From Candidatus Omnitrophota bacterium (GTDB lineage Bacteria > Omnitrophota > Gorgyraeia > Duberdicusellales > 4484-171), in assembly GCA_021735655.1 (NCBI GenBank), contig JAIPGM010000003.1, forward strand, positions 128,001 to 192,000: a DNA stretch of 64,000 nt, given 5' to 3'. Position numbers and translations under genes: made by a program. The notes under the pieces were generated by a model. The model was not told where the DNA came from, did not search any database, and worked only from the letters and a program-made list of their open reading frames with translations. Shown here piece after piece: positions 52 through 42,075 of this stretch. Positions within the stretch are counted from its first letter, which is position 1. The number at the start of each line of letters is the position of its first letter.

Positions 52-510
52 ATGGCTAAAGCAGGAATAGTATTTTTAAAAATATTTAGAGTATTAATTG
101 GTTTAGTACTTTTAGTTTATAGTGCATGTTTGTTGGGCAGTTTTTTCTCGGTCTCGGTGCATGACTATATAGGTGCTTTAGGCCAGCAATATAAGGTGAT
201 TGGGTTTATCTTTGCCGGTCTTTCTTCTACGCCAGCCTTTGCTTATCTATCTTTGTTCGTTGGCTCAATATATTTTTTAGCGGCTATCTCGATACTTAGC
301 TTGAAACATAATCCGCGTATTGGTGCTACCTATATTTTATTTTCGGTGTGGGTATTCATTGTTTTTATTCTAGCCTTAAAAATTAAGGAAGGCATTGGGG
401 TTGGTTTTTCGAACCCAGACTTTATAGCTAGTGTAACCGATTTTTTTAAAATAATGGTACCATTGGTAATCCCAGCTTTATTTTTACCGTTTTTTACCGG
501 CGGAGAGTAA
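52..510 (+). CDS. hypothetical polytopic membrane protein
   Basis: ORF with an AAGGAGG RBS 8 nt upstream. At least 4 predicted hydrophobic helices. No recognisable motif. Confidence 0.45.
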   Translation: MAKAGIVFLKIFRVLIGLVLLVYSACLLGSFFSVSVHDYIGALGQQYKVIGFIFAGLSSTPAFAYLSLFVGSIYFLAAISILSLKHNPRIGATYILFSVWVFIVFILALKIKEGIGVGFSNPDFIASVTDFFKIMVPLVIPALFLPFFTGGE

Positions 511-568
511 AAAAGGCTTTACCCAGATTGTATTTTTGATATAATAAGTCTTAACAAGGAGGTGTCCA

Positions 569-907
569 GTGAAAAAGATAGTTCTTTTAGTAGTCATATT
601 GCAGTTATTTTTTCTTCCCGTACATGCTCAAGATTATAATGCTTTACGTAAATTCGGAAGAGGTCTTTCTAACACTTTTCTCGGGTTAACTGAAATTCCT
701 CGTCAGATGGGGATAACTCGTGAAGAATCTGGCAGTGTAGCCGGTGTTTTTTACGGAGCGCCAAAGGGCATTCTTTTTACTGTCGGTAGAATGGCTATAG
801 GCTTGTATGAAGTAGTTACTTTTTTAATTCCACCCTATAAGCCGGTGGTTGAACCAGAATTTGTACTTACTGAAGAGTATAATGACCTTACTCCTGATGA
901 GGAGTAG
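569..907 (+). CDS. small secreted protein, member A of a paralogous pair with conserved C-terminal IPPY...EPEFV motif
   Basis: N-terminal signal peptide (…LPVHA/QD). GGAGG RBS. Aligns along its length with ORF 31415..31741 (KxxRGxxN…E(I/V)P(R/K)Q…G…YG…KG…TV…G…Y(E/D)…F.IPPY…EPEFV). Confidence 0.6.
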   Translation: MKKIVLLVVILQLFFLPVHAQDYNALRKFGRGLSNTFLGLTEIPRQMGITREESGSVAGVFYGAPKGILFTVGRMAIGLYEVVTFLIPPYKPVVEPEFVLTEEYNDLTPDEE

Positions 908-1002: not shown

Positions 1003-1458
1003 ATGAAGACAGAGAGAGTTCATAAATTTTCCTCAGCCCAAAGCCTTAAACAGTTTAATTTCAGTATAATTATTTTTGTTGGAGCAATAATCCTTTTGGT
1101 TGTTTTTAAGAATTTTCAAGTTTCCAACCAGCAAACCTACGGAGATTTACACCTTCGGGACAAAGAAGAGATTGCTCAGGCTTTTGTCCAGCTAGAGCTT
1201 AGATTATCAGAAGTCGAATTCGCAGATTTAAATAGTTTGATTGCAAAAGGCATGAGGGTGCTTCCTGAGTATGAGCGAGATAAACTTGAAAAATTGCAGA
1301 AAAAATACGCCTATAAAGGGCATAAGAGCTTTACTGAAGATGATGTTTTAGCTATGCGGCAGTTAAACTATAAGGCGATTGGTTTACTTTCTGAGGAAGA
1401 TCAGTCTAGATTTCATTATCTTATGCTTAAGGCTACTGGAAAGGTTTCCGATAATTAG
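1003..1458 (+). CDS. hypothetical protein with single N-terminal TM anchor
   Basis: ORF. Hydrophobic segment aa 20-37. Charged helical remainder. Confidence 0.4.
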   Translation: MKTERVHKFSSAQSLKQFNFSIIIFVGAIILLVVFKNFQVSNQQTYGDLHLRDKEEIAQAFVQLELRLSEVEFADLNSLIAKGMRVLPEYERDKLEKLQKKYAYKGHKSFTEDDVLAMRQLNYKAIGLLSEEDQSRFHYLMLKATGKVSDN

Positions 1459-1484: not shown

Positions 1485-2339
1485 ATGATTAAAAAATCAA
1501 TATTATTAATTTTCACAACTGGTTTCGTTTTTTTTGCTCAAGCCGAAGTGGTTGTTTTTAAAAATGGCAAAGTTATTGAAGGGGAAATAACCGAGCGAAC
1601 TTCGCAATATTTAAAAATTGAGCTTAGTGGCATATCAATAAAATATTATCTTGAAACGATTGAAAGCATTGATGGTGAGAAAATTTCTGATCTTGGGCTT
1701 AGTAAGGAAGGCGTAGAATTAGGCGCTAAGGTTAAGCAAGATAGAGTAATCAGTGAGACTTGGCGCAAGCATTATGCCCAGGCTGAGCAATATCTTGAGA
1801 ATCGTCAATACGAACAGGCAATATTGGAGTTTAATGAGGTTTTGAAAGAAGACCCTGGAGCATATGAGGCTTATACTGGCATAGGTTTTGCTAACATTCA
1901 GCTAGGTAAGTATGAAGAAGCTATAGCTAACTTTAAAAAGGCTATAGAAATAAATTCTGAATATGTTCAAGCTTATGATAATATCGGAGTTGTTTATTCA
2001 TTTTTACGCCGCTATCGTGAAGCTTTGCCTTATTTTGATAAAGCCATAAGTATAGATCCAGAATTTGTCACTGCTTACAATAATCTTGCATCTACCTATC
2101 TTTTTCTGGGTCAGTATCAAGAAGCGGTTATCTATTATCAGAAAGCTTTTCAAATTGACCCTCAAAATGCCGACTCTGCTCGTAGCCTTGGTGTGGCCTA
2201 TAATGATTTGGGTAAGGCAAAAGAAGCCAAGGAATATCTTGAGAAAGCAATAGAGCTCTATAAGGCTCAGGGTGACTATCATGGTGTGCAAAAAGCAGAG
2301 GACCAACTCAAAAACATTCCTAAAGATTCTCTTAAATGA
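1485..2339 (+). CDS. TPR-repeat protein with signal peptide
   Basis: Signal peptide. Repeated A..Y/N.G..Y…G.Y.EA…F.KA 34-aa TPR units through aa 100-260. Confidence 0.7.
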   Translation: MIKKSILLIFTTGFVFFAQAEVVVFKNGKVIEGEITERTSQYLKIELSGISIKYYLETIESIDGEKISDLGLSKEGVELGAKVKQDRVISETWRKHYAQAEQYLENRQYEQAILEFNEVLKEDPGAYEAYTGIGFANIQLGKYEEAIANFKKAIEINSEYVQAYDNIGVVYSFLRRYREALPYFDKAISIDPEFVTAYNNLASTYLFLGQYQEAVIYYQKAFQIDPQNADSARSLGVAYNDLGKAKEAKEYLEKAIELYKAQGDYHGVQKAEDQLKNIPKDSLK

Positions 2340-3487
2340 AAGCTTATAAAATTCTGCTCACAGCCTGTATATTCCTGTTTATTTTTCTCTGTTTCTTTCA
2401 TTATTTTTCTCAGAGGCCTCTTTGGGGAGATGAGAAGTTCGTTCTCGATAACATCAGAGACAGATCATTTAAACAACTCTTCGGAGTACTTAAAGACAGC
2501 CAGGCTTTTCCTCGAGTTTATTTAGGGATAGTTCAATCATTTTCAAAAGTGTTTCAGTATCATGTTTTGTCGTTACGTTTTTTACCATTTCTTTGTATGC
2601 TGTCGGCATTTTTTATTTGGAAGAGAGTGTATCGTCAAGTCCTAGATAGTCGTTGGCTGGCGTTATTAACCTTATCTTCTTTGAGTAGTATTTATTATTT
2701 TAGTTATTATGCGGCGGAATTAAAGCCTTACTCTATGGATGTATTGGTAGTAGCTATATTTTGTCTTTATTTTGTTTATCAAAAAAAACTGGACTCTAAA
2801 GGCCTTTCAAAAAAGTTTATTGTTGCAACTTTACTTTTACCGATTACCCTTTTCTTTTCCTATGCTAGTTTTTTAGTTTTTTGGATTGTAATTTATAATT
2901 TTTTATTCGTTGTTAAAAGAAGTCAAAAAATACTCTATCTTTTAATGATCTATTCTGCACTTTGTTTTTTATTTGGAATTTCGACATATTGGATTGATTT
3001 GAGACATGGCTATTCAACTCCCGGGCTCATATCTTATTGGAATGATTATTTTGTTTGCACTGATTCGGCCTATTGTTTTTTTAAATCCTTTGGTGAAGGT
3101 TTAAGGAAACTCGCTACTTGGTGGTTTGGTAATGTCGATTTTTTAAAGAGAAGTGCTTCTTTCGTCATACCTTTTTTTACAATTTCTTTATTTGTCTATG
3201 GTTTTAAATCTTTCAAAAGCAATAGCTGTCGACTTTTCAGTCTGGATTCTGTTGGTTTGGCTATTTTCCTTGAGTTGTTAGTTTTGGGAATTCTAAAAAA
3301 GTATCCTTTTACTGGAGAAAGGGTAACTTTATTCTTTGCTCCCTTTGTTTTTTATTTTATTATTAAAGGTATCAGCTCACTTAAAAAAATAAAAATTCTA
3401 TACCGATTTTTCGTTGTTTCTTACCTTGGTCTTATTTTAGGCTGTGGCCTGAACTCGATTTTAACTTATTTAAAGCTTTATAACTGA
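2336..3487 (+). CDS. polytopic membrane protein, possible GT-C-type (polyprenyl-phosphate-sugar dependent) glycosyltransferase
   Basis: About 10 hydrophobic helices. 4-nt overlap with the upstream gene. Immediately upstream of a Dpm1/GtrB-like GT2. No diagnostic motif, so function is inferred from context only. Confidence 0.4.
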   Translation: MKAYKILLTACIFLFIFLCFFHYFSQRPLWGDEKFVLDNIRDRSFKQLFGVLKDSQAFPRVYLGIVQSFSKVFQYHVLSLRFLPFLCMLSAFFIWKRVYRQVLDSRWLALLTLSSLSSIYYFSYYAAELKPYSMDVLVVAIFCLYFVYQKKLDSKGLSKKFIVATLLLPITLFFSYASFLVFWIVIYNFLFVVKRSQKILYLLMIYSALCFLFGISTYWIDLRHGYSTPGLISYWNDYFVCTDSAYCFFKSFGEGLRKLATWWFGNVDFLKRSASFVIPFFTISLFVYGFKSFKSNSCRLFSLDSVGLAIFLELLVLGILKKYPFTGERVTLFFAPFVFYFIIKGISSLKKIKILYRFFVVSYLGLILGCGLNSILTYLKLYN

Positions 3488-3512
3488 TTTTTTATTTTAA
3501 GGAGCAAAATTT

Positions 3513-4226
3513 ATGCAAAATCAAAAGAGTATACGTTTATCAATCATTATCCCTTGTTTTAATGAGAAAAACTTTATACGAGAAATCATTGATCGGGTGA
3601 ATAAAGCCCCAGTTGTCAATAAAGAGATAATTTTAGTAGATGATTGCTCGACTGACGGAACCAGAGAGTTGATCAAGAATGAGCTTCATAAACAGGTAGC
3701 TAAGGTAGTTTATAGCGATAAGAATTTGGGCAAAGGATCAGCTTTGCGCAAAGGGTTTGCTAAGGCTAGTGGAGACATTGTTATAGTCCAAGATGCTGAC
3801 TTAGAATATGATCCTGAGGAATATCCAAAATTAATTAAGCCGATTATCGAAGGAAAAGCTGATGTAGTTTATGGCTCACGTTTTGTCGGGTCGAGTGGGC
3901 ATCGAGTTTTGTATTTTTGGCATATGGTTGGTAATAAAGCTCTTACTCTTTTTTCCAATATATTTACTAATTTAAACCTTACCGATGTGGAGACTGGCTA
4001 TAAGGTTTTTCGAAAGAGTATCCTTGATAAGGTTAAGCTTGAAGAAGATGGATTCGGTTTCGAAGTGGAAGTTACCGCTAAAGTGGCTGAGTTAAAATGC
4101 AGAATTTATGAGGTTGGTATTTCTTATAACGGAAGAACTTATGAACAAGGGAAAAAGATCGGTTGGCGCGATGGAGTTAAAACAATAGTTACAATTATTA
4201 AATACGCATTATGCCGGCAGAATTAA
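3513..4226 (+). CDS. GT2-family polyprenol-phosphate glycosyl (mannosyl/glucosyl) transferase, Dpm1/ArnC/GtrB-like, soluble form
   Basis: LSIIIPCFNE…VDDCSTDGT…VVQDADLEYDP (DxD) motifs typical of GT2 Dpm1-like enzymes. 237 aa with no C-terminal TM. Confidence 0.8.
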   Translation: MQNQKSIRLSIIIPCFNEKNFIREIIDRVNKAPVVNKEIILVDDCSTDGTRELIKNELHKQVAKVVYSDKNLGKGSALRKGFAKASGDIVIVQDADLEYDPEEYPKLIKPIIEGKADVVYGSRFVGSSGHRVLYFWHMVGNKALTLFSNIFTNLNLTDVETGYKVFRKSILDKVKLEEDGFGFEVEVTAKVAELKCRIYEVGISYNGRTYEQGKKIGWRDGVKTIVTIIKYALCRQN

Positions 4227-4239
4227 GAAAGGGGGTAAC

Positions 4240-4620
4240 GTGACTAAGGGTAAATTTATATTAGTTTTTGCAGTAATTATTCTTATGAGTCAGTTTTTTG
4301 TTTTTGGGCAAGATCAGCCGCGTTGGCAAAGTCTATGTAAAGGCTCAGCTAACCCTTATTGCGTGGCTGTTGGCAAGGATGCTTGCAATAATGATTCTCA
4401 TCCAATACCTTTACGTGGCCTTGAATTGGGGAAGGTAACCGGCGTTGTTTGGATCCAAGAGGGCGAAACGGTTAGCGGTGTTGGTGAATGGCCGCAAGTC
4501 GCACCAAAAAATGACTATTATTACATAATTGATAATGACATATCTGAACCTTTTATTAGGGTATGTAGCGAAATCGAAATTAAGGCAGAAGTAGAGGATG
4601 CAGGATTTAGTTCCGATTGA
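4240..4620 (+). CDS. secreted Cys-containing hypothetical protein
   Basis: Signal peptide (…VFG/QD). 6 Cys. GGGGG RBS-like stretch upstream. Confidence 0.45.
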   Translation: MTKGKFILVFAVIILMSQFFVFGQDQPRWQSLCKGSANPYCVAVGKDACNNDSHPIPLRGLELGKVTGVVWIQEGETVSGVGEWPQVAPKNDYYYIIDNDISEPFIRVCSEIEIKAEVEDAGFSSD

Positions 4621-5052: not shown

Positions 5053-5616
5053 TTGGATAGAAACAGAGCAAGATTATTTGAACTGGTAGTATTACTGGTT
5101 GTTGTTGGAATTTTAGCGGCAGCAGCTTTTTTTAATGCTTTTAGTGTTGTTGAGAAGGCTAAGATTTCTAAAATGGCGGTTGAGGTCAAAGCTTTAAAGA
5201 CAGCTTGGTATTCTTTTTACTCTGATTGCGGGTATTTTCCTACTGAAAATGATTATAAAGATAAAGGGGTTTATTCACATAGTGAAGTCGGGCCATTGAT
5301 GAAAGATACAGATATCACTAAGGATGTTCTAAGCAGAAGCAGTTGGAATGGCCCTTACTATAAAGGTAAGTGTCGTTCGCCATGGCTTGCGCCTTACTTA
5401 TATGATAATGACAACAACAACGTATACGATCCAGTTATTGGAACTAATCCTTATCGAGGGACTAATATCGGTATATCAGAATTAGATTTTAATGGAGATG
5501 TAGAAAAGATAGTTCCGGCGATGGATGAAATAATTGATGATGGAAATTCTTCAACCGGAAGCCTTAGATATACTCCTAATAAGCGAGTTTTTTATTTGAT
5601 TCATAATAATTATTAA
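5053..5616 (+). CDS. type IV pilin-like protein with degenerate prepilin N-terminus (paralog of 38717..39310)
   Basis: TTG start with AGGGGGG RBS. N-terminal hydrophobic helix carries a conserved Glu at the pilin +5-equivalent position, but the G|F cleavage site is replaced (…RA|RLFE…). Shares NAF..(I/V)EKAK(I/V)S…KA(L/Y)KTA.YS.Y(S/A)D.G, W(N/D)GPY and C-terminal DDG…G with the second pilin. Confidence 0.55.
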   Translation: MDRNRARLFELVVLLVVVGILAAAAFFNAFSVVEKAKISKMAVEVKALKTAWYSFYSDCGYFPTENDYKDKGVYSHSEVGPLMKDTDITKDVLSRSSWNGPYYKGKCRSPWLAPYLYDNDNNNVYDPVIGTNPYRGTNIGISELDFNGDVEKIVPAMDEIIDDGNSSTGSLRYTPNKRVFYLIHNNY

Positions 5617-13646: not shown

Positions 13647-13979
13647 ATGAGCTTTAGGGTTATTTTTGTAGTTTTAACTGTAGCGGTTTTAATTTCTGGA
13701 TGTGTTCAGATGCGAGATTATACCGGGACTCGCGAGGGGGCTGCCGGATTAGATGTTAAGAATCGGTTCGGTGCTGGTCTTGAGAAAAAAGATTATTATG
13801 TAGTTAAGGATGGAGATGGTATTGTTATCGGTGATAACAAAGATGAAGTAATAGCTATGCTTGGTCTCCCGGATCAAGTAAGTACAACTCTTGAAGGTTA
13901 TGAATATTGGACTTATGATAAAAGGAGCCTTAAACTATTTTTTTCTCAGGATCGGCTCAGGGAGTGGGAAGAATTTTAA
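13647..13979 (+). CDS. small lipoprotein (hypothetical)
   Basis: Lipobox LISGC. GGAGG RBS. 110 aa. Confidence 0.5.
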   Translation: MSFRVIFVVLTVAVLISGCVQMRDYTGTREGAAGLDVKNRFGAGLEKKDYYVVKDGDGIVIGDNKDEVIAMLGLPDQVSTTLEGYEYWTYDKRSLKLFFSQDRLREWEEF

Positions 13980-15247
13980 TTCAATTTTTTGTTTAGATCT
14001 CTTACGTAGTTTTTTATTTTCCAAAAATCTTTTATTTTTTCTTTTTGAAAGAAGCTAAATAGAGAGTTGTTGTGTAAGATTGGCTCATCGACATTATTTT
14101 GATAATGTTTAAATATTTCAGTCTCCGGGACTGGTGAAAATTCAGCCAGAGATACTCTTGCCCCTAGTCGGTTTATAAATTCAACATCAGATTTTAATTC
14201 ATCAAGGTCTTGATTGGGGTAACCCAAAAGTAGATATATACTAAACTCACCATTTTTGAAACCGCCATTTTTGAGTGATTCTATTCCTTTAACTAAATCA
14301 TCTCTGGTTGCTTTATCTCCCCAGGCCTTTTGTAATTTTGGGTTTAGGGTTTCTAAGCCAAAATGAGGGTTGATAAAACCGGATTGTTTAAGAAGCTTTG
14401 ATATCTCAGGGTCTAGAAAGCGCAGATGAAGAGCATTCGGGGTGTGAAAGTTAATTTTTAATTTTCTTTTTACTATGTTGTTCAATAATATTTTTGCATA
14501 TTCTGGTTCATAAAGGAAGGCATCGTCGTAGAGAACAAAATGGCTTAGACCGCGTCGGGCATATTTTACGATAAAATTAACTATTTTATCAGAGTTTATC
14601 CTAAGGAATCCCGATGAAAGTTTTTTTATAGCGCAAAAGCTACAGCTAAATGGACATCCCCATGAGGTTCTCAAGACCAGATAGTCTAAAGAGCTATAGA
14701 AATTTTCATAATCAGGAAGAGTCGAATAGAGTTCTTCTAAGTTAAACGGACAATTTATTAGTTTAAAGAATTTGTCAATTTCAGAGTTTTTAAAAATAAA
14801 GTCGCCACAGTTATTTTCTTTAGCATGGCTATCACAGAGGGTTGCGTAGGTGCCTCCTAAAATTATCGGAATTTTGGGAAATTTTTTCCTTAATATTAAA
14901 TTTAATTCGATAATTGCTGGATACCAATAAGTCATTGATGAGGTAATAAGAATGTAGTCTGGATTTTTGCCAACTAAGCGTTTTTCGAATTCATCTTTAG
15001 GCATTCCGTAGCGTTTAAAATAACGGGGAATAGATTTAGCTGCTCCAGGGGTAGGAATGATTTCACAATAGTACTTACCGCGGCCAAAATCAGCTTGGGA
15101 TATTTTTTTATCTAGGCAATCGATATAGTCTATTGATAACCCTTTGTTTTTTAGGTAGGTCAGAATAACTAAAAATCCATAGGGTTTGAGCCAGAAATCG
15201 TAGGCAGCACAGTCAATTATCCAGGGATTTATTGCTAAAATATTCAC
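13976..15247 (-). CDS. B12-binding-domain radical SAM protein
   Basis: N-terminal cobalamin-binding-like Rossmann segment followed by CPFSCSFC radical-SAM cysteine triad. It is the lone minus-strand gene in this block. Confidence 0.75.
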   Translation of the reverse strand: MNILAINPWIIDCAAYDFWLKPYGFLVILTYLKNKGLSIDYIDCLDKKISQADFGRGKYYCEIIPTPGAAKSIPRYFKRYGMPKDEFEKRLVGKNPDYILITSSMTYWYPAIIELNLILRKKFPKIPIILGGTYATLCDSHAKENNCGDFIFKNSEIDKFFKLINCPFNLEELYSTLPDYENFYSSLDYLVLRTSWGCPFSCSFCAIKKLSSGFLRINSDKIVNFIVKYARRGLSHFVLYDDAFLYEPEYAKILLNNIVKRKLKINFHTPNALHLRFLDPEISKLLKQSGFINPHFGLETLNPKLQKAWGDKATRDDLVKGIESLKNGGFKNGEFSIYLLLGYPNQDLDELKSDVEFINRLGARVSLAEFSPVPETEIFKHYQNNVDEPILHNNSLFSFFQKEKIKDFWKIKNYVRDLNKKLN

Positions 15248-15303
15248 GAGTCCATTATAACAAATATGCTATAATAGGGAAATCTTAAGAATAGGAGCCA
15301 AGA

Positions 15304-16290
15304 ATGTTTGAAGAAGACTTTAGAAATACGGTAAAAAAATACTCTCTTTTGAAAAAAAGGGATAAGGTGCTTTTGGGAGTTTCTGGCGGACCAGATTCAC
15401 TCTGCTTGCTTCAGCTTTTTTTAAAATTGCAGAAAGAATACTCCCTAAAGTTGATCTGCCTGCATTTTAACCACCAGCTGCGTAAAGAGGCCGATAGCGA
15501 GGAGGATTTCGTAAGGCGAGCTTGCAAGCGTTTGGGTGTTGAACTTATCTCAGAAAGTAAGCCGGTTAATGATTTTTTTAAAGGGGATTCCTTAGAACAG
15601 ACGGCCAGAAACTTAAGATTTGATTTTTTCTTAAAACTTTCCCGACAGACTAAATTTAAAAAAATTGCCTTGGCTCACCATAAAGATGATTTAGTGGAAA
15701 CAGTTTTGATGCGTCTGATTCGTGGCTCAGGTTTAAAAGGTTTGCAGGGTTTCTTGCCAAAATCAAAATTCAGAAGCCTTACGGTTATTAGACCGCTGAT
15801 TGAATTAACGAAGAGTGATATTTTGAAATGGCTTAAACAAAACAAAATCGACTATTGTCTTGATCAGAGCAATTTTGAAGATAAGTTTTTTCGCAACCGT
15901 ATACGTTCAAAGCTTATGCCTTTGCTCAAGGAGCTTAATCCGAATATAGTTAACAATATTTATAATGCGGCCAGAACTATTTCTCTCGACTACTCTTTTT
16001 TGTATAGCTTTTCGCACCAGGCTTTTTTAGCCCTTAAGATGAAAGAAGGCAAGGGTAGCATTTCTTTAAGGCTTACTGGCCTCAAGGAATTACCTAAGGC
16101 AATTTTTGCTAATGTAATTAGAATTGCGATTGAAGATTTACAAGGACACACTCGAAGGTTAGAAGCCAAGCATTTAGTTGAGGTTGATGATTTAGTTGCC
16201 AAGCGGCCTCTGGGCAGTATTGTTAATCTACCATTTTTGATGGTGAAAAAAGAGCAAAATTCTCTACTCATTCAATCCTTGATTTTATAA
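15304..16290 (+). CDS. tilS: tRNA(Ile)-lysidine synthetase
   Basis: PP-loop LLGVSGGPDSLCLL (SGGxDS). Sits upstream of ftsH as in many bacteria. Confidence 0.8.
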   Translation: MFEEDFRNTVKKYSLLKKRDKVLLGVSGGPDSLCLLQLFLKLQKEYSLKLICLHFNHQLRKEADSEEDFVRRACKRLGVELISESKPVNDFFKGDSLEQTARNLRFDFFLKLSRQTKFKKIALAHHKDDLVETVLMRLIRGSGLKGLQGFLPKSKFRSLTVIRPLIELTKSDILKWLKQNKIDYCLDQSNFEDKFFRNRIRSKLMPLLKELNPNIVNNIYNAARTISLDYSFLYSFSHQAFLALKMKEGKGSISLRLTGLKELPKAIFANVIRIAIEDLQGHTRRLEAKHLVEVDDLVAKRPLGSIVNLPFLMVKKEQNSLLIQSLIL

Positions 16291-16314: not shown

Positions 16315-18222
16315 ATGAATCAGAAAAAAATCCCCAAAAAGACCAAGTCTCCCAATAATAATTTCCTGCGTTCAGGATTTTTTATTATGGCTATATTTTT
16401 GGGTGTTTTGTGGTTGACCAGCCTTTTTAACTCAGAGCTTAACGGCACCGTAAAGAAGCTTGCCTACAGTGAATTTTACTATAAATTAGAACATAATTTG
16501 GAGAAGCCGGAGATAAAGTCGGTCAAGATGATTGATAATTTGATTCAGGGCAATTTTACTGAAAGTGCAGGAGGCGATCGATTTTATTTACATATACCTG
16601 CGGATGATGAAGACTTGCTTGCTTTGTTGAGAAAGAATGTTGATAAATTCGAAGTAGAGCCACCGCGTACATTTCTTTCTAATATTCTATTTTCTTTAGG
16701 ACCGATAATTATTTTGATTGGATTTTTTTGGTACATGTCTTATAAGGGTAACCAAATGGGTTCTCGGGTTTGGAGTTTTGGCAAGTCCCGGGCCAAGCTT
16801 ATGGATAAGGAAAAAACAACCCGGGTTACTTTTAATGATGTTGCCGGAATCGACGAAGCCAAAGAAGAACTCGAAGAGGTGATTGATTTTTTAAAAGATC
16901 CTAAAAAATTTCAGCGCTTAGGCGGAAGATTCCCTAAGGGAGTGTTGTTAGTCGGACCTCCTGGTTGTGGAAAGACTCTATTGGCTAAGGCTGTTGCTGG
17001 GGAAGCCAAGGTTCCTTTTTATAGCATTAGTGGTTCAGATTTTGTCGAGATGTTTGTCGGAGTAGGAGCTTCCCGAGTGCGGGATCTTTTTGAGCAGGCT
17101 AAAAAAGCCGCTAAAAGCGAGAGTAAGGGATGCATTATTTTTATTGATGAAATAGATGCTGTCGGTCGCCAGCGTTTTTCCGGAGTCGGCGGAGGCCATG
17201 ACGAGCGAGAGCAAACTCTAAATCAGCTATTGACTGAAATGGATGGTTTTCAGACTGAGATCGGAGTTATTGTTATGGCTGCAACCAATCGACCGGATGT
17301 TTTAGACCCGGCTTTGCTTCGTCCTGGGCGCTTTGATCGTCATGTTGTTATTTATGCTCCCGATATTCAGGGAAGAGAGGGAATTCTAAAGGTTCATACT
17401 CGTAAAATTCGTCTAGCCAAAAAAATTGACTTAAAAACAATTGCTCAAAAAACGCCTGGATTTTCGGGAGCTGATTTAGAGAATCTTTGCAATGAGGCTG
17501 CTTTATTGGCAGCTAGACATGGTAAGGAATCGGTAGAGCAGTCAGAGCTTGAAGAATCAATTGAGCGGGTAATAATGGGTCCGGAGAAAAAGAGCCGAAT
17601 AATTTCTAAGCGGGAAAAAGAACTAACTGCTTACCATGAAGCTGGCCATACGATACTGTCTTTATTAATTCCGGAAGTTGATTCTTTGTCCAAGGTTTCG
17701 ATAATACCTCGAGGCATGGCTGGCGGTTATACTTTTACTCCGCCGCGTGAGGATCGTTGGCATAGATCTAAAAAAGAGCTTCTTGGTACAATAACCGTGA
17801 TGCTTGGCGGGAGGGTGTCCGAAGAGGTAAATCTAGATGACATTACGACTGGAGCGAGTGACGATTTGACTAAAGTAACTCAAATTGCTCGCAAGATGAT
17901 TTGCGACTACGGAATGAGTGAACGATTAGGTAGCTATGCTCTTGGTTCAAACCAAGGGCCAATATTTTTAGGTCGCGACTTAATTAGAGAAAAAGACTAC
18001 AGCGAAGATACTGCTAAAATAATTGATGAGGAAGTTAAGCGGATTGTTGGTGAGTGCTATACAAGAGCCAAACAACTTATTACTGATAATAAAGCCAAGC
18101 TAAAAATATTAGCTGAAGCCTTGCTCGAAAAAGAAGTATTAGATGCCAAGGAAGTCAAACGCCTAATCGGTTTTAAAGATGAGGATAACCCCAGTAGTAA
18201 TAAAAAACGAACAAAAAGCTAG
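16315..18222 (+). CDS. ftsH: ATP-dependent zinc metalloprotease FtsH
   Basis: Two N-terminal TM segments. AAA Walker A GPPGCGKT. Walker B/SRH region. HEAGH zinc motif. Confidence 0.92.
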
Positions 18223-24818: not shown

Positions 24819-25169
24819 ATGGCTGAATATCCGGGCTCAGAAAGAAGGAAATTCCCTCGGTTAGATGCAAACTTTGTCATTAGCTATCGGATTAAAGAAG
24901 TGGTTGATGGCTATGATCTTACCCAGTCAAAGAATGTAAGTCAGGGGGGCATACTCTTAACTACCAATAGGTTGTTTAACAGGGGTACAATTTTAGCAAT
25001 GACTATACGTTTTCCGCTTATTCCTCAGAAAATTGATGTTACTGGCGAGGTTATTGATTCTAGAGAGGTGGTACGAGATTTAATTTATGAGACTAGAATA
25101 AAATTTCTAGATTTAGATGAAGAGTTTTTTCAAAAGTTAGGTGAGTTCATCCGGGAAAATTTAAAATGA
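24819..25169 (+). CDS. PilZ-domain protein (c-di-GMP binding)
   Basis: RRKFPRLD (RxxxR) and DLTQSKNVSQGG (D.S..GG) PilZ signature motifs. 116 aa. AAGGAGG RBS. Confidence 0.7.
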   Translation: MAEYPGSERRKFPRLDANFVISYRIKEVVDGYDLTQSKNVSQGGILLTTNRLFNRGTILAMTIRFPLIPQKIDVTGEVIDSREVVRDLIYETRIKFLDLDEEFFQKLGEFIRENLK

Positions 25170-31059: not shown

Positions 31060-31366
31060 ATATTATTTTCTTATGGCAAAGGCCATATTTGCAGGTAAAA
31101 TGGGGCTATTTTGGCTGAAAACGTTTACAGTATTTCTTTGTTATACCCTGTTCAGGGTGGTTAAATCCATGGTATATAAGAGGTGTTAAAGCGTTCTTTG
31201 GAATTGAATCTCGTAGCGAAAAGGCAAACCTCAAGAAATTGTGGGGCGCAAAGCTCAAAGAGCCTAAAGGCCAAGTAAGTTCAAATGGCTAGGGTAGTCA
31301 GCTGCCGAATTATCTGATTAAGTTGGATAGGTAACCCATAGTCTTTTAGCTATGGGTTTTTTTGTT
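31060..31366 (+). ncRNA. candidate structured RNA, or long 5' leader of ORF 31415..31741, ending in an intrinsic terminator (identity unknown)
   Basis: ~350-nt non-coding gap between rpmB and the paralog-B gene. It contains several short hairpins and ends in a strong terminator 50 nt before the RBS. No confident match to tmRNA, RNase P, SRP, 6S or known riboswitch cores by eye. Confidence 0.2.
31333..31363 (+). terminator. intrinsic terminator (AACCCATAG-loop-CTATGGGTT + T7)
   Basis: 9-bp stem with an 8-nt loop followed by ttttttt at 31357-31363. Confidence 0.6.
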
Positions 31367-31414: not shown

Positions 31415-31741
31415 ATGGTTAAGAAAATCGTGGCTTTGATGTTGGTGATTGGTATATGCAGTATGAGTTTTGGTGCTTATGCGTATGATCAGAATGCAGC
31501 TACAAAACTTGCTCGTGGTATTGTCAATGGAGTTACTTCTTGGATAGAGGTTCCGAAACAAGTTTATCTAGTTTCTAAAGAGAGAGAGCCTTTAACTGGC
31601 ATAACTTATGGTATGGTTAAGGGAGTTGTTTATACGGTTTTACGGGTAACTGAAGGAGCTTATGATATAGCATCTTTTGCGATACCGCCTTATGACCAAC
31701 CACTTCTTGAACCAGAATTTGTTTTTGAAGGTTGGGAATAA
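31415..31741 (+). CDS. small secreted protein, member B of the paralogous pair (IPPY...EPEFV family)
   Basis: GGGGAGG RBS. Signal peptide (…SFGAYA/YD). Aligns with ORF 569..907 along the full length. Confidence 0.6.
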   Translation: MVKKIVALMLVIGICSMSFGAYAYDQNAATKLARGIVNGVTSWIEVPKQVYLVSKEREPLTGITYGMVKGVVYTVLRVTEGAYDIASFAIPPYDQPLLEPEFVFEGWE

Positions 31742-31781
31742 GTATAATTTAGAATATTAGCTCTTCCTCTTAAAAAGCAGG

Positions 31782-31820
31782 AAAAAAGGGCAGGTTCTTA
31801 TAGGGCCTGTCCTTTTTTTA
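31782..31820. terminator. bidirectional intrinsic terminator between convergent genes
   Basis: AAGGGCAGG…CCTGTCCTT hairpin preceded by an A-run and followed by a T-run. Located between the + gene ending at 31741 and the - gene ending at 31825. Confidence 0.5.
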
Positions 31821-31824
31821 TTTA

Positions 31825-32922
31825 TTATAGTTTGGGTATTTTTCCAAGCAGGGCGGTGTCGTTGTCCTTGTTGGCTAAAGCGCGGGCTTTCTTGAAATGT
31901 TTTTTTGCTTCCTTTACCTTGCCAGCGCCTGAAGCAATCATTCCTAAGTTGTAATATATTTTAGCATTGTTCTTGTCTACCTTTAGAGCTTTATTTAAGA
32001 CTCTGATGGCTTCGGGGTAGTTTTTTAGTTTTCCGTAGGCTGCCCCGAGATTAATATAAGATTTTACAAACGAAGGATCCTGCTTAATTGCTTCTTCAAA
32101 GTATTCAGCGGCTAGATCAAAATTATTTAGGTAAGCATAGATCACACCTAGTCGATAATGAGCCTGAGGGTTGTTAGGATTAAGCGAAATACTTTGTTGC
32201 AGGCAGTCAATTGCCTTTTCGGTTTCATTATTTTTAAAATGAGCTGAAGCCTTCCTTAGGAGATTCATTGCTTCTAGGGTTTTATGGCTTTGGGGAGTTT
32301 GAGAATCTTTTGATATTGCATCCAGATCTTTGGCATATATAGTTTTGGTTATTGTTTGAGGGTCGATTTCTTCACTTTCGGTAATTTCTTGAGGCTCTGG
32401 CTTTCGGAGAATATTTTGCTGGGCTAGACTTAAACCATTAAGGGCTTCTTTTAAGCCGGGCTTTAATTCTAGGCATTGAGAAAAATAATCAACCGCTTCT
32501 TGGTAGTTTTCTTTTTGATAGGCGCATAGCCCGAGATTATAGAAGATAATATATTTTTTCGGATAGTTTTCTTTAGCTAGCTTTTTTGCTTGGCTGAGTT
32601 CCTCTTGAGCTTGATTATACTCGTAGCGATTGATATGGATAATGGCGAGATTGATATAACTTTCGGGAAATTCCGGAAAGAGGAATTTAGCCTTTTCAAA
32701 TTCAAATTTAGCATCAGAATATTTTTTGTTTTCAAGTAATTCTAATCCGACAGCAATATTTCGGTCGTAAAGGTATTTAAGTGGTGGCTCTTGTTCATTT
32801 TCTTCCAGGAAATCAAAGGCATAAGCAAGAGGGATATTTAATGCAAATAGAAATAATATGGCAAGGAGTAAAGACCTTATTTTCATTGATTCTATTCTAA
32901 TACAGAATGTTTTGTTTTTCAA
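31825..32922 (-). CDS. TPR-repeat protein with signal peptide
   Basis: Signal peptide. Many TPR-like units (…Y..LG..Y…G.Y.EA…). Confidence 0.7.
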   Translation of the reverse strand: MKNKTFCIRIESMKIRSLLLAILFLFALNIPLAYAFDFLEENEQEPPLKYLYDRNIAVGLELLENKKYSDAKFEFEKAKFLFPEFPESYINLAIIHINRYEYNQAQEELSQAKKLAKENYPKKYIIFYNLGLCAYQKENYQEAVDYFSQCLELKPGLKEALNGLSLAQQNILRKPEPQEITESEEIDPQTITKTIYAKDLDAISKDSQTPQSHKTLEAMNLLRKASAHFKNNETEKAIDCLQQSISLNPNNPQAHYRLGVIYAYLNNFDLAAEYFEEAIKQDPSFVKSYINLGAAYGKLKNYPEAIRVLNKALKVDKNNAKIYYNLGMIASGAGKVKEAKKHFKKARALANKDNDTALLGKIPKL

Positions 32923-38609: not shown

Positions 38610-38716
38610 TTGGTTATATTATTATGATAAAATGGCAACAATAGAATAAATAATTTAAGCAATTAGGTAGTTCGTCTGTTAATTGTTAGATATAAAATAA
38701 AGAAATGAGGAGAAAA

Positions 38717-39310
38717 ATGAAAAAAGTATTTACCTTGATCGAACTAATTGTAGTCATCGCTATCATCGCAATTTTAGCTGCTATCATTGCTCCCAATGCC
38801 TTTAAGGCCATTGAAAAAGCGAAGGTATCTGAAGCAATTGGAGATTTTAAAGCATATAAAACCGCGGCCTATAGTTTATATGCTGATACTGGTAAATGGG
38901 TTATGGAGGGTGCGGGTATTGAGTCTACTCCTGCTGGTGTATGTTGTTTTTTATTCTTGGAATCCGATAATAATGATTTATCTGTAGACCTTACTGGCTG
39001 GGTTGGTTGGGATGGACCATACATTGAGAAAATTAAATCAGAGCACCCTTGGGGAGGTTGGTATGCTTTTCAAAGTTGGGACGCTGGTAGAGGCCCAGAG
39101 GTAGATATGTGGGTTGATTTCGAAGATGATTGTTATCAAATTCCTAAAGATTGGGGAAACGGTGGCTGTCCTGTGCCATTAAAGGCTCAACTGAAAATTG
39201 ACAGCATGGTTGATGACGGGGATCTTACGAATGGAAGTATCTTAGATGGCCCATCTACAAATCAGGTAGAAGGCGATCTAAGTTGGATTTTGGTTTGGGA
39301 TGCTTTATAG
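38717..39310 (+). CDS. type IV pilin / pseudopilin (prepilin-type N-terminal methylation domain), non-canonical Val at -1
   Basis: GAGGAG RBS then MKKV|FTLIELIVVIAIIAILAAII. The FTLIE class III signal is present but the residue before Phe is Val (gta), not Gly. Paralog of 5053..5616. An upstream in-frame ATG at 38705 is unlikely because it lies within the RBS. Confidence 0.7.
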   Translation: MKKVFTLIELIVVIAIIAILAAIIAPNAFKAIEKAKVSEAIGDFKAYKTAAYSLYADTGKWVMEGAGIESTPAGVCCFLFLESDNNDLSVDLTGWVGWDGPYIEKIKSEHPWGGWYAFQSWDAGRGPEVDMWVDFEDDCYQIPKDWGNGGCPVPLKAQLKIDSMVDDGDLTNGSILDGPSTNQVEGDLSWILVWDAL

Positions 39311-40274: not shown

Positions 40275-40625
40275 ATGTTTTGCCTTACTCCTCAAGAAAG
40301 AAAGGTTATTTTTTTAATCGCTGGTTTGATTTTGTTGGGTGGTATTTTAAGATTTTTAAATACTGACAAAATAAATAAAATATTTTTAGAGAATGCCAGT
40401 AAAACTTCTGCTGAGGAAGCTAGTGGTCGGCAAATACTGATCAATATTAATAAGGCTGACAGAGGACAACTTGAGCTTTTGCCGGGTATTGGTACGGTAA
40501 CCGCAGAAAGAATTATTAATTACCGTTCTGATTACGGTATTTTTAAAAGTTTCGAAGATTTAGAAAAAGTTAAAGGAATCGGAAGCGAAAAGGCTAAAAA
40601 TTTGGCCGAGTTAATTGTTTTTTAA
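40275..40625 (+). CDS. comEA: competence protein ComEA (helix-hairpin-helix DNA receptor)
   Basis: N-terminal TM anchor. C-terminal tandem HhH (ININKA…LELLPGIG…AERII.YR…G.F.S.EDL.KVKGIG.). Confidence 0.8.
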   Translation: MFCLTPQERKVIFLIAGLILLGGILRFLNTDKINKIFLENASKTSAEEASGRQILININKADRGQLELLPGIGTVTAERIINYRSDYGIFKSFEDLEKVKGIGSEKAKNLAELIVF

Positions 40626-40638
40626 GAGTTAAGTCATT

Positions 40639-42075
40639 GTGGTAAATATAAATTATGGTTCTTTTTTTAATTTTTTTCTTTTTATTTTTTTTGCCTTAGG
40701 TATCATAGTTAGCGCATTTTTTCCATCATTCTTGACCTCCCTTTGTTGTTTTTTTGTTGTAAGTTTTTTTAGCTATTTTTTTTATCGGAGAAATCGACGG
40801 TTTCTTTCTGATATCTTAATTTTGGTTATCTTTTTTGTTCTTGGAGGTATTTGGTATCTGGCTAATTCGCATCATCAACCGGAATCCCTTTTAAATAAAG
40901 ATAAGCGATTTGTTCTTAAGGTAATATCTTTACCTAAAAATACAAAATTGCGCAGTAGTTTCGCTGCCGAGATAGATCAAGCAGACGGTCATCCCTTTAG
41001 ACAAACTTTAAGAGTTTATGATTATACGAAGTCTTTGGAATACTTAAATAGTTATGAGGTTTTGGGTAAGTTAACCAGAAGGAGCTATCATGATCGCTGG
41101 TTTTATTATCTTTGGATAAAGTCTAAAGCTAGGATAAATGAGCTTTCTTTGAATCCCTGGGACAAGTTTGTTAAAGGGACTAGCCTGTATATTCTTGATA
41201 TTTTTAGAAAGAATTCTACGGATCAGGCTTATCGGTTTCTGGCAGCGGTATTTTTAGGAAGAAGGGAGTTGCTGGGTGGCGAGCGTGAATTTTTCTCTCG
41301 GGCTGGAGCATCACATCTTTTGGCGATAAGTGGATTGCATGTTGGTCTTACCGCTTTAATTTTGTTTTCTTTCTTGGGATTCTTCGGCCTTTCTTTTAGG
41401 CTCCGTTTAGGAATTTCTTTAGTTTTTCTTTATCTTTATACTTTTTTGACCGGGGTCAGTCCGTCAACTTTACGGGCGGTTATTATGTACTCGGTATTTG
41501 CTTTTAGTTTTTTCTTAAAACGAAGACCACACTCTTTCAATTCTTTAGGTTTGGCCGGACTAATTTGTTTGTTAATAGATCCGGCAATGCTTTTTACAAT
41601 TGGCTTTCAACTATCTTTTATGGCAGTTTTTGCCATCCTTGTTGGTTATCGAATTTTTCCGGTTAAGTTAGTTGGCAGTCGAGCTCTGGTTTACTCTGGG
41701 CAGATTTTCTTTTGCTCTTTGTTTGTAAATGTATTTGTCACACCGTTAACCGCTTATTATTTCGGCAATATTAATACTTTGGGGATAGTCTATAATATTG
41801 TTTTGATTCCTTTTTTTACTTTTATTCTTACGATAAACTTCTTTTTAATTATATTGGCTCCAGTAAGTTTTATTGCTCAAAATTTAGGGGCTTTACTTTC
41901 ATTTCTTATTTTGATTTTTGTTTATTTGGTCCGGTTTTTAGGTTCTTTTAGCTTTTCTTATTTTAGCTGGCAATTTTCTCTAACCGGCGTGTTTGGCTAC
42001 TATTTTGTTCTGGCCGGGATTCTTGTGTTTTTCAAGCTCAAGAGTAGTCTCAAGCTCCAAAGTCCAGATAGTTAA
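40639..42075 (+). CDS. comEC: ComEC/Rec2 DNA-uptake channel, short form lacking C-terminal metallo-beta-lactamase domain
   Basis: DUF4131-like N-terminal region followed by the polytopic Competence domain (…FLAAVFLG.R…LSRAGASHLLAISGLHVG…). Ends at 478 aa with no HxHxDH domain. Confidence 0.75.
   Translation: MVNINYGSFFNFFLFIFFALGIIVSAFFPSFLTSLCCFFVVSFFSYFFYRRNRRFLSDILILVIFFVLGGIWYLANSHHQPESLLNKDKRFVLKVISLPKNTKLRSSFAAEIDQADGHPFRQTLRVYDYTKSLEYLNSYEVLGKLTRRSYHDRWFYYLWIKSKARINELSLNPWDKFVKGTSLYILDIFRKNSTDQAYRFLAAVFLGRRELLGGEREFFSRAGASHLLAISGLHVGLTALILFSFLGFFGLSFRLRLGISLVFLYLYTFLTGVSPSTLRAVIMYSVFAFSFFLKRRPHSFNSLGLAGLICLLIDPAMLFTIGFQLSFMAVFAILVGYRIFPVKLVGSRALVYSGQIFFCSLFVNVFVTPLTAYYFGNINTLGIVYNIVLIPFFTFILTINFFLIILAPVSFIAQNLGALLSFLILIFVYLVRFLGSFSFSYFSWQFSLTGVFGYYFVLAGILVFFKLKSSLKLQSPDS

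Follow-up and report, generated by a model that had tools for sequence, protein, structure and literature searches.

What do two small, related proteins, encoded 30 kb apart in the genome of an uncultivated bacterium, contribute to its cell? The question is raised by a stretch of 64,000 nucleotides from Candidatus Omnitrophota (GenBank assembly GCA_021735655.1, contig JAIPGM010000003.1, positions 128,001 to 192,000 of the forward strand), referred to here as the window and numbered from its first letter. The Omnitrophota, a phylum not yet in culture, have very small cells that may depend on a host. The first of the two genes, copy 1 (569..907, + strand), has a GTG start and encodes 112 amino acids; the second, copy 2 (31415..31741, + strand), starts with ATG and encodes 108. 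We find that both belong to the TIGR04073 family, and that copy 2 is preceded by a conserved riboswitch for cyclic di-GMP (c-di-GMP) and faces a convergent gene for a tetratricopeptide repeat (TPR) protein. On balance, we consider it probable that the two are Sec-exported periplasmic hairpins of ~85 residues in their mature form, tied to c-di-GMP-governed assembly of the cell surface or of exopolysaccharide, with copy 2 being made at low c-di-GMP levels.

Two paralogues of the TIGR04073 family

The family assignment is clear. Against the NCBIfam/TIGRFAMs model TIGR04073 ("exosortase system-associated protein, TIGR04073 family"; cutoff 50 bits), copy 1 scores 82.9 bits over profile positions 3-75 of 75 and copy 2 scores 81.9 bits over positions 2-75. 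A protein from a Candidatus Omnitrophica metagenome-assembled genome (MAG) that is 100% identical to copy 2 (P0166) already carries a TIGR04073-type name in GenBank, as do near relatives of copy 1. A first-pass annotation made from the letters alone had been unable to tie the pair to any family; this holds for Pfam, which matches neither copy, and was wrong for NCBIfam. The same annotation would have given up its reading had the pair turned out to belong to a well-characterised family of known function, and TIGR04073, named by association only, is no such family. The motifs it had picked out (K-x-x-R-G-x-x-N, E-I/V-P, G-x-x-Y-G-x-x-K-G, R, G-x-Y-E/D, IPPY and EPEF) correspond to invariant or near-invariant columns of the family alignments, where K, R-G, N, E, several G, R, G-x-Y-E, T-F and P-E-F are invariant.

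TIGR04073 is a large family. A HMMER search of 1.84 billion representatives retrieved 2504 cluster representatives (50% identity) at E ≤ 1e-3, and 1369 of them pass the stricter limit of E ≤ 1e-10. The length of nearly all falls within 100-140 amino acids, with the domain at the C-terminus, the same architecture being found in the 150 best of the 2504; a few members are longer lipoproteins that carry a coiled coil at the N-terminus. Copies 1 and 2 fit this size and architecture, each with a signal-peptide-like N-terminus and a C-terminal domain. Literature searches retrieved no paper on TIGR04073, and we found no solved structure related to it by sequence or fold; the family is thus known by its name alone, which was given solely on the basis of genomic association. 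The name presumably reflects its occurrence in genomes that possess a PEP-CTERM/exosortase system. With a motif-restricted alignment as query, we further collected 180 relatives from GTDB genomes that form another subgroup of the family, and examined the best 80; these all stem from Omnitrophota or from MAGs labelled "uncultured Planctomycet" (with any ending), other phyla lying outside this scope.

Copies 1 and 2 are paralogues. BLASTP of the pair aligns them from residue 1 to the EPEFV motif, including the entire mature region, with 38 identities in 103 positions (37%), 62% positives and E = 1e-23, and a six-frame search of the window with the family's hidden Markov model (HMM) detected these two members and no third. 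The first-pass annotation had claimed a whole-length alignment and had itself named similarity confined to the signal peptide as grounds for dropping the claim; the match across the mature region bears the claim out. By the same evidence, it is next to inconceivable that the likeness arose by chance or from the signal peptides, or that the open reading frames are not genes: we found nothing in favour of this explanation, and the pairwise alignment already refutes it, alongside matches to a curated HMM, thousands of homologues and conserved synteny. Copies 1 and 2 represent separate orthologous lineages with different wiring. Each has its own orthologues and its own conserved synteny in other Omnitrophota MAGs, a comparison that the first-pass annotation had proposed and whose outcome is in line with its argument that keeping both copies reflects function.

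Where would the proteins reside? In both N-termini, read from the sequence and from the N-terminal helix of the AlphaFold2 (AF2) models, a hydrophobic helix stands between a segment rich in K and R and an A-x-A site (VHA/QD in copy 1 and AYA/YD in copy 2, the slash marking the putative cut after residues 20 and 23, respectively), an organisation consistent with Sec/signal peptidase I signal peptides; the first pass, too, had assigned a signal peptide to each. We thus infer that both copies are exported. Model searches of the window proteins identified BamD and Lnt; the cell is therefore diderm, and together with the Sec-type signal peptide and its AxA site this suggests a periplasmic or envelope location.

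Structure prediction, likewise suggested by the first pass, gave a helical hairpin with an ordered C-terminal strap. The copy 2 model (107-sequence alignment; mean predicted local distance difference test score, pLDDT, 89.6; predicted template modelling score 0.70) comprises the signal-peptide helix (residues 2-20), two antiparallel helices (28-56 and 59-87) and, at the C-terminus, a segment without helix (88-108; pLDDT ~88-90) that closes with …EPEFVFEGWE. In the model of copy 1, built from a shallower alignment, the same helices recur, and the acidic end …TEEYNDLTPDEE beyond the strap is disordered (pLDDT <50). The second helix carries a glycine zipper of invariant glycines, in copy 1 G59-x3-G63-x3-G67. 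The fold is thus predicted to be an antiparallel two-helix hairpin, followed by the proline-, aromatic- and acid-rich IPPY…EPEFV as an ordered strap.

A c-di-GMP riboswitch in front of copy 2

A Rfam scan of the window uncovered an element that the first-pass annotation had passed over. Within the 400-bp gap upstream of copy 2 lies a c-di-GMP-I (GEMM-I) riboswitch aptamer (31213..31309, + strand; RF01051), matched at 60.8 bits (gathering score 35) over model positions 1-87 of 87, with an E-value of 2e-9 for the whole window. It possesses the GAAA tetraloop and its receptor, and the ligand-specifying position, which precedes GCAAAC, is occupied by a G. A stretch of 105 nt separates the aptamer from the ATG, and the leader continues with an intrinsic terminator found by a terminator scan (31333..31366, + strand; AACCCATAG-loop-CTATGGGTT followed by a T-run), which would serve as expression platform, and with a GGGGAGG ribosome-binding site 7 nt upstream of the start codon. 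The best-supported account of this arrangement is that copy 2 is a direct target of a c-di-GMP riboswitch.

The presence of aptamer and terminator is a conserved property of the copy 2 lineage. Overall, 24 of the 28 copy-2-type loci contain the aptamer. In each of the seven loci tested with Rfam, the orthologue is preceded by a match to the aptamer model or to its GGC variant, and a covariance model built from the Rfam aptamer hits of copy-2-type loci recovers the aptamer in 10/10 loci (L087-L096) and in 13/17 metagenome loci. After clustering, the aptamer occurs in 12 of the 15 clusters at 90% identity, and all six clusters at 70% have aptamer-bearing members. The terminator follows at a distance of ~10-25 nt from the aptamer in the 16 distinct orthologous leaders, all of which share a nearly identical stem (ACCCAUAG…CUAUGGGU) and U-run within a variable spacer. 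Literature searches retrieved no paper on a riboswitch-TIGR04073 association in Omnitrophota, and on c-di-GMP riboswitches together with exosortases or Omnitrophota nothing relevant apart from a Methylophaga table in which such riboswitches precede PEP-CTERM genes (PMC12530212).

In which direction would c-di-GMP act? The 5′ arm of the terminator and GGCUAUGG, the strand of the aptamer that contributes the tetraloop receptor, are complementary, and in one orthologous leader (L092) UUAUGG in the aptamer is paired with CCAUAA in the arm, a compensatory change. Since formation of the hairpin requires complementarity only, conservation of the sequence of the 5′ arm suggests a second pairing partner. 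In the mechanism we propose, the ligand-bound aptamer would hold its own GGCUAUGG strand, leaving the 5′ arm of the terminator free, and transcription would stop; without ligand, the GGCUAUGG strand could capture the arm as an antiterminator. Copy 2 would then be made when c-di-GMP is low, and we lean towards regarding the leader as an OFF switch. GEMM-I riboswitches of both the ON and the OFF type exist, and folding speaks to the alternative, namely an ON or a translational switch through which c-di-GMP induces copy 2: the terminator forms in every full-length minimum-free-energy fold, even without ligand, and the antiterminator is part of the minimum-free-energy structure of truncated transcripts in only 6 of the 16 leaders. 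Thermodynamic folding of the leaders lends the OFF reading partial support and did not decide between ON and OFF. In contrast, the layout argues against an ON switch, as terminator and aptamer do not overlap and the sole conserved competitor for the 5′ arm is the aptamer strand that the ligand would sequester, which is the classical OFF arrangement; a translational mode is at odds with a ribosome-binding site that lies 40-50 nt past the terminator and stays accessible in the predicted folds. We therefore regard an ON or translational switch as possible, if rather doubtful.

The aptamer is no general attribute of TIGR04073 genes. Among the 80 loci of the other subgroup, no c-di-GMP riboswitch lies directly upstream of a family gene; about a dozen GEMM-I aptamers in these loci precede other exported or membrane proteins. 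The 12 GEMM-I aptamers found in ~1.2 Mb outside the copy-2-type loci suggest that surface proteins form a broad regulon under c-di-GMP riboswitches. Several precede genes for very large or family-less exported proteins of 3257, 889, 558 and 735 amino acids (in Omnitrophota loci L032, 10354..10469, +; L004, 755..847, +; L029, 11653..11748, +, and 16436..16522, -; and L019, 7408..7593, +). Four others, in high-GC Omnitrophota loci (L027, 670..754; L012, 3403..3489; L010, 4681..4801; L035, 2094..2179; all - strand), precede a protein of ~107-134 amino acids with a single membrane helix, a coiled-coil-like body and a basic …AEPR-x-x-HR… tail; unannotated so far, it is a second riboswitch target that recurs in the phylum. 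Over the 3′ half of the copy 2 aptamer and the terminator (31268..31366, + strand), Rfam also reports a sub-threshold match to the Qrr small RNA (22.6 bits; gathering score 50), which the hairpin and U-run almost certainly bring about. The sole PilZ gene of the window (24819..25169, + strand; PF07238, 44.2 bits), located just past a tRNA-Pro gene, encodes a stand-alone PilZ-domain protein of 116 amino acids; as a c-di-GMP receptor, it implies that c-di-GMP signalling in this organism extends beyond the riboswitch.

Gene neighbourhoods of the two lineages

Orthologues of copy 2 share 43-82% identity with it, all end in …EF-V/A-F-E-G-W-x, and are placed between rpmB and a convergent TPR gene. 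In the window, that gene (31825..32922, - strand) is listed with 365 amino acids and has NCBIfam and TPR matches; its true start is probably an internal Met, which would provide a signal peptide ending …PLAYA/FDF (slash as above) and make the product an exported TPR protein. Between the two genes, the terminator scan located an 18-bp hairpin with T-runs on both sides (31781..31819), a terminator shared by copy 2 and the convergent gene; as this bidirectional terminator closes the gene, copy 2 is monocistronic. The TPR pairing is directly observed and conserved: the convergent gene accompanies copy-2-type genes in all loci of the L087-L096 set and in 13 of 17 metagenome loci, and it is kept even beside the most distant orthologue fetched (P0039, 43% identity), where all other neighbours differ.

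Copy 1 is wired differently and appears to be expressed from a conserved envelope cluster. Its orthologues are 70-90% identical to it and all end in …EEYNDLTP-D/E-E, and three Omnitrophota MAGs have the gene order in common: a four-helix membrane protein, the TIGR04073 gene, a 150-amino-acid anchored protein, a TPR protein, an eight-helix protein of ~382 amino acids, a GT2 glycosyltransferase and an exported protein of 126 amino acids. The corresponding genes of the window are all on the + strand. Upstream of copy 1 lies the gene for a 152-amino-acid protein with four membrane helices predicted by hydropathy (52..510), followed by a promoter-like site (518..545; TTTACC-16-TGnTATAAT, an extended -10 arrangement with 10/12 consensus matches, as a pattern match only) and an AAGGAGG ribosome-binding site (557..563). 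Downstream follow a 151-amino-acid protein that hydropathy predicts to be N-terminally anchored (1003..1458), a 284-amino-acid exported TPR protein (1485..2339; Pfam TPR_1, TPR_2 and TPR_8, E down to 3e-35, with sub-threshold NCBIfam similarity to PrsT, MamA and PilW), a 383-amino-acid protein with ~8 predicted membrane helices (2336..3487) and a GT2 glycosyltransferase (3513..4226; Pfam Glycos_transf_2, 130 bits) that resembles the polyprenyl-phosphate sugar transferases AglJ, PpgS and ArnC, its best NCBIfam matches being below their cutoffs. Neither Pfam nor NCBIfam matches the proteins of 52..510 and 1003..1458. For the eight-helix protein, an exosortase identity (XrtA/EpsH; TIGR04178, PF09721) was considered and dropped, there being no Pfam or NCBIfam match at E ≤ 0.01.

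The genes in 2336..4620, taken with 52..510, are laid out like a periplasmic polyprenyl-phosphate-sugar glycosylation module (GT-C, GT2, GtrA-like); the membrane proteins of this group match none of the GT-C or GtrA-like families. Moreover, pseudopilin or type IV pilin-like genes with an N-terminal methylation motif and GspG- or PilW_C-like features are scattered about the copy 1 cluster (window 5053..5616 and 38705..39310, both + strand; syntenic locus L001 7156..7698 and 13931..15812), and flank it on both sides in the syntenic MAG loci as well.

A third context emerges from the other subgroup. Here, PilZ genes (Pfam PF07238, 40.8 bits) occupy the same-strand position +1 or -1 of 49 of 87 family genes, where the local PilZ density would predict ~16%. 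At a distance of two genes, the opposite strand encodes a 274-amino-acid ATPase. Its match to TIGR03015 ("XrtA/PEP-CTERM system-associated ATPase") covers the whole model with 322.4 bits, 2 bits under the cutoff of 324.5, and the ATPase is hence called TIGR03015-like; it occurs in 38 loci, and an accompanying GspB-like protein in 34. In the L007-L086 set, this AAA ATPase and a 192-amino-acid protein with a weak GspB match (PF16537) are found ~0.7-2.5 kb upstream of the family gene, as a conserved pair that is divergent to the PilZ-TIGR04073-PilZ genes and resembles an ExeA/ExeB-like pair in an exosortase-type context. Genuine PEP-CTERM tails are encoded ~5 kb or less from family genes in three loci (L008, L010 and L035).

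Two further observations concern the window as a whole. Nearly all of its genes are on the + strand, at a GC content of ~37% and a GC skew that is strongly positive throughout (0.13-0.25 per 4 kb), from which we conclude that it lies on a single leading-strand replichore arm. At 40275..42075 (+ strand), a ComEA-like helix-hairpin-helix protein precedes a 478-amino-acid protein with the ComEC N-terminal domain (TIGR00360, 101.7 bits), which ends past the channel region and leaves the C-terminal part of full-length ComEC models unmatched.

Possible roles and known systems

What purpose might the conserved tail serve? The first-pass annotation took IPPY…EPEFV for a tag in envelope processing, docking or recognition, which in its most specific form would be a PEP-CTERM-like signal recognised and cleaved by an exosortase-like enzyme. 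Several findings speak for such a tag: the family owes its name to co-occurrence with exosortase systems, its near-invariant P-E-F/Y is similar to P-E-P, and PEP-CTERM proteins and the TIGR03015-like ATPase are encoded near family members in other Omnitrophota loci. Yet the motif reads P-E-F/Y instead of P-E-P, and 4-14 residues follow it before the end of the protein, with neither a membrane helix nor a basic cluster among them: the tails, …EPEFVLTEEYNDLTPDEE in copy 1 and …EPEFVFEGWE in copy 2, contain no hydrophobic helix and no Arg/Lys cluster. This rejects a PEP-CTERM sorting domain (TIGR02595) for either copy, as it demands P-E-P, a membrane helix and a basic cluster, and with this defining feature checked and absent, we consider a sorting tag very unlikely. 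Furthermore, EPEFV is where the TIGR04073 profile itself ends, and since the strap is predicted to be ordered within the domain, the tail looks like the last element of the fold rather than a cleavable signal. The window, in addition, shows no exosortase. A different proposal starts from the glycine zipper, whereby the proteins would be membrane-embedded or membrane-active oligomers that form rings or pores, loosely like SlyB-type glycine-zipper lipoproteins, instead of soluble periplasmic adaptors. Hydropathy indeed marks the second helix as a possible membrane helix, which makes a soluble periplasmic location less than certain. However, invariant K, R and E residues lie inside the helices, no Pfam glycine-zipper family was matched and no specific structural match was obtained, so that we rate this proposal as unlikely, too.

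If the strap belongs to the fold, a docking role could still fall to the lineage-specific ends past EPEFV, and this possibility extends our reading of the pair as envelope hairpins without excluding it. The C-termini …EEYNDLTPDEE-COOH of copy 1 and …FEGWE-COOH of copy 2 could act as short docking peptides for the neighbouring periplasmic TPR proteins, much like EEVD-COOH in TPR clamps, which would turn the hairpin into a ligand or adaptor of a TPR scaffold. Both copies have an exported TPR protein as conserved neighbour, in the case of copy 2 one that stays in place even where every other flanking gene is different; within each lineage, the ends are conserved; the acidic end of copy 1 is predicted to be disordered; and binding of C-terminal acidic peptides by TPR domains is established, Hop and CHIP recognising EEVD-COOH of Hsp70/90 and PEX5 recognising PTS1. 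Against this stand the predicted order of the copy 2 end on its own hairpin, the convergent orientation of copy 2 and its TPR gene, which are not co-transcribed, and the commonness of TPR genes in the phylum, and the argument is one of gene pairing and analogy. TPR docking of the acidic or aromatic C-termini would be the most attractive mechanistic extension, although we put it forward only tentatively. More speculative still, and in our view improbable as a whole, is a scheme in which TIGR04073 hairpins are c-di-GMP-gated periplasmic adaptors whose x-P-E-F ends and acidic C-termini dock on TPR scaffolds or act at an exosortase as mimics of the PEP motif, thereby timing the attachment of surface proteins or polysaccharide; copy 2, its riboswitch and the TPR protein would then constitute a minimal three-part switch module of Omnitrophota.

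We return to the broader reading, in which both proteins would act as small structural or adaptor subunits of a c-di-GMP-governed surface or exopolysaccharide assembly. Several results weigh against it. As TIGR04073 has no defined biochemical function, we infer the adaptor or structural role from context, and parts of that context vary between lineages: four of the 17 metagenomic copy-2-type loci lack the aptamer even with filters off; TPR adjacency is ruled out as a family-wide feature, being absent from the 80 loci of the other subgroup at phmmer sensitivity; and PilZ adjacency is limited to few lineages (16/47 clusters at 90% identity, 3/10 at 55%). HMM, regular-expression and hydropathy scans of the open reading frames of the window revealed no exosortase, PEP-CTERM protein or TIGR03015-like ATPase, which makes the "exosortase-associated" label no more than putative for the present genome. 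To these points add the flagged hydrophobicity of the second helix, the folding results described above and the fact that the OFF logic is based on predicted alternative pairing.

Taken by itself, the pair is ordinary: a named family, a classical riboswitch class and a known repeat protein, probably annotated automatically in the source record. No paradigm is changed, since family, riboswitch class and TPR were each already known. Within the literature that could be searched, what is new is the conserved Omnitrophota module that combines a GEMM-I riboswitch with a TIGR04073 gene and a convergent TPR gene, together with the PilZ and TIGR03015-like context of another lineage. For a family of more than 2500 metagenome clusters (50% identity) that was named without known function, the riboswitch-led lineage, the TPR pairing and the lineage flanked by PilZ genes and a PEP-CTERM-type ATPase provide the first clues to regulation and partners, and together they place TIGR04073 in c-di-GMP-controlled assembly of the envelope or surface.

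How does this compare with known systems? At the family level, copies 1 and 2 do not differ from TIGR04073 at all, sharing the end-to-end profile match, the size, the signal peptide and the C-terminal EPEF ending; the exosortase association implied by the name did not show up within the 64-kb window. With the substrates of PEP-CTERM/exosortase systems (XrtA, EpsH), they have in common export and a conserved Pro-Glu motif at the C-terminus, an association implied by the family name, PEP-CTERM tails and a TIGR03015-like ATPase near their Omnitrophota relatives and, as seen for PEP-CTERM genes of Methylophaga, c-di-GMP riboswitches ahead of the genes; having P-E-F/Y and neither membrane helix nor Arg/Lys cluster, they are by definition not PEP-CTERM substrates. 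Hop/CHIP and PEX5 offer a pure analogy, as the setting here would be periplasmic and the TPR proteins match generic TPR models only; the likeness lies in a conserved acidic or aromatic C-terminus on each hairpin protein and a conserved TPR neighbour, both exported. A further parallel is with c-di-GMP-I riboswitches such as Cd1 of C. difficile, an OFF switch upstream of the flagellar operon, and Vc2 of V. cholerae. While the target here is a TIGR04073 protein in Omnitrophota, with ligand binding and direction predicted from sequence, the copy 2 leader has the same aptamer class, a downstream intrinsic terminator as in Cd1-type platforms and, as its target, a gene for a putative envelope or surface protein.

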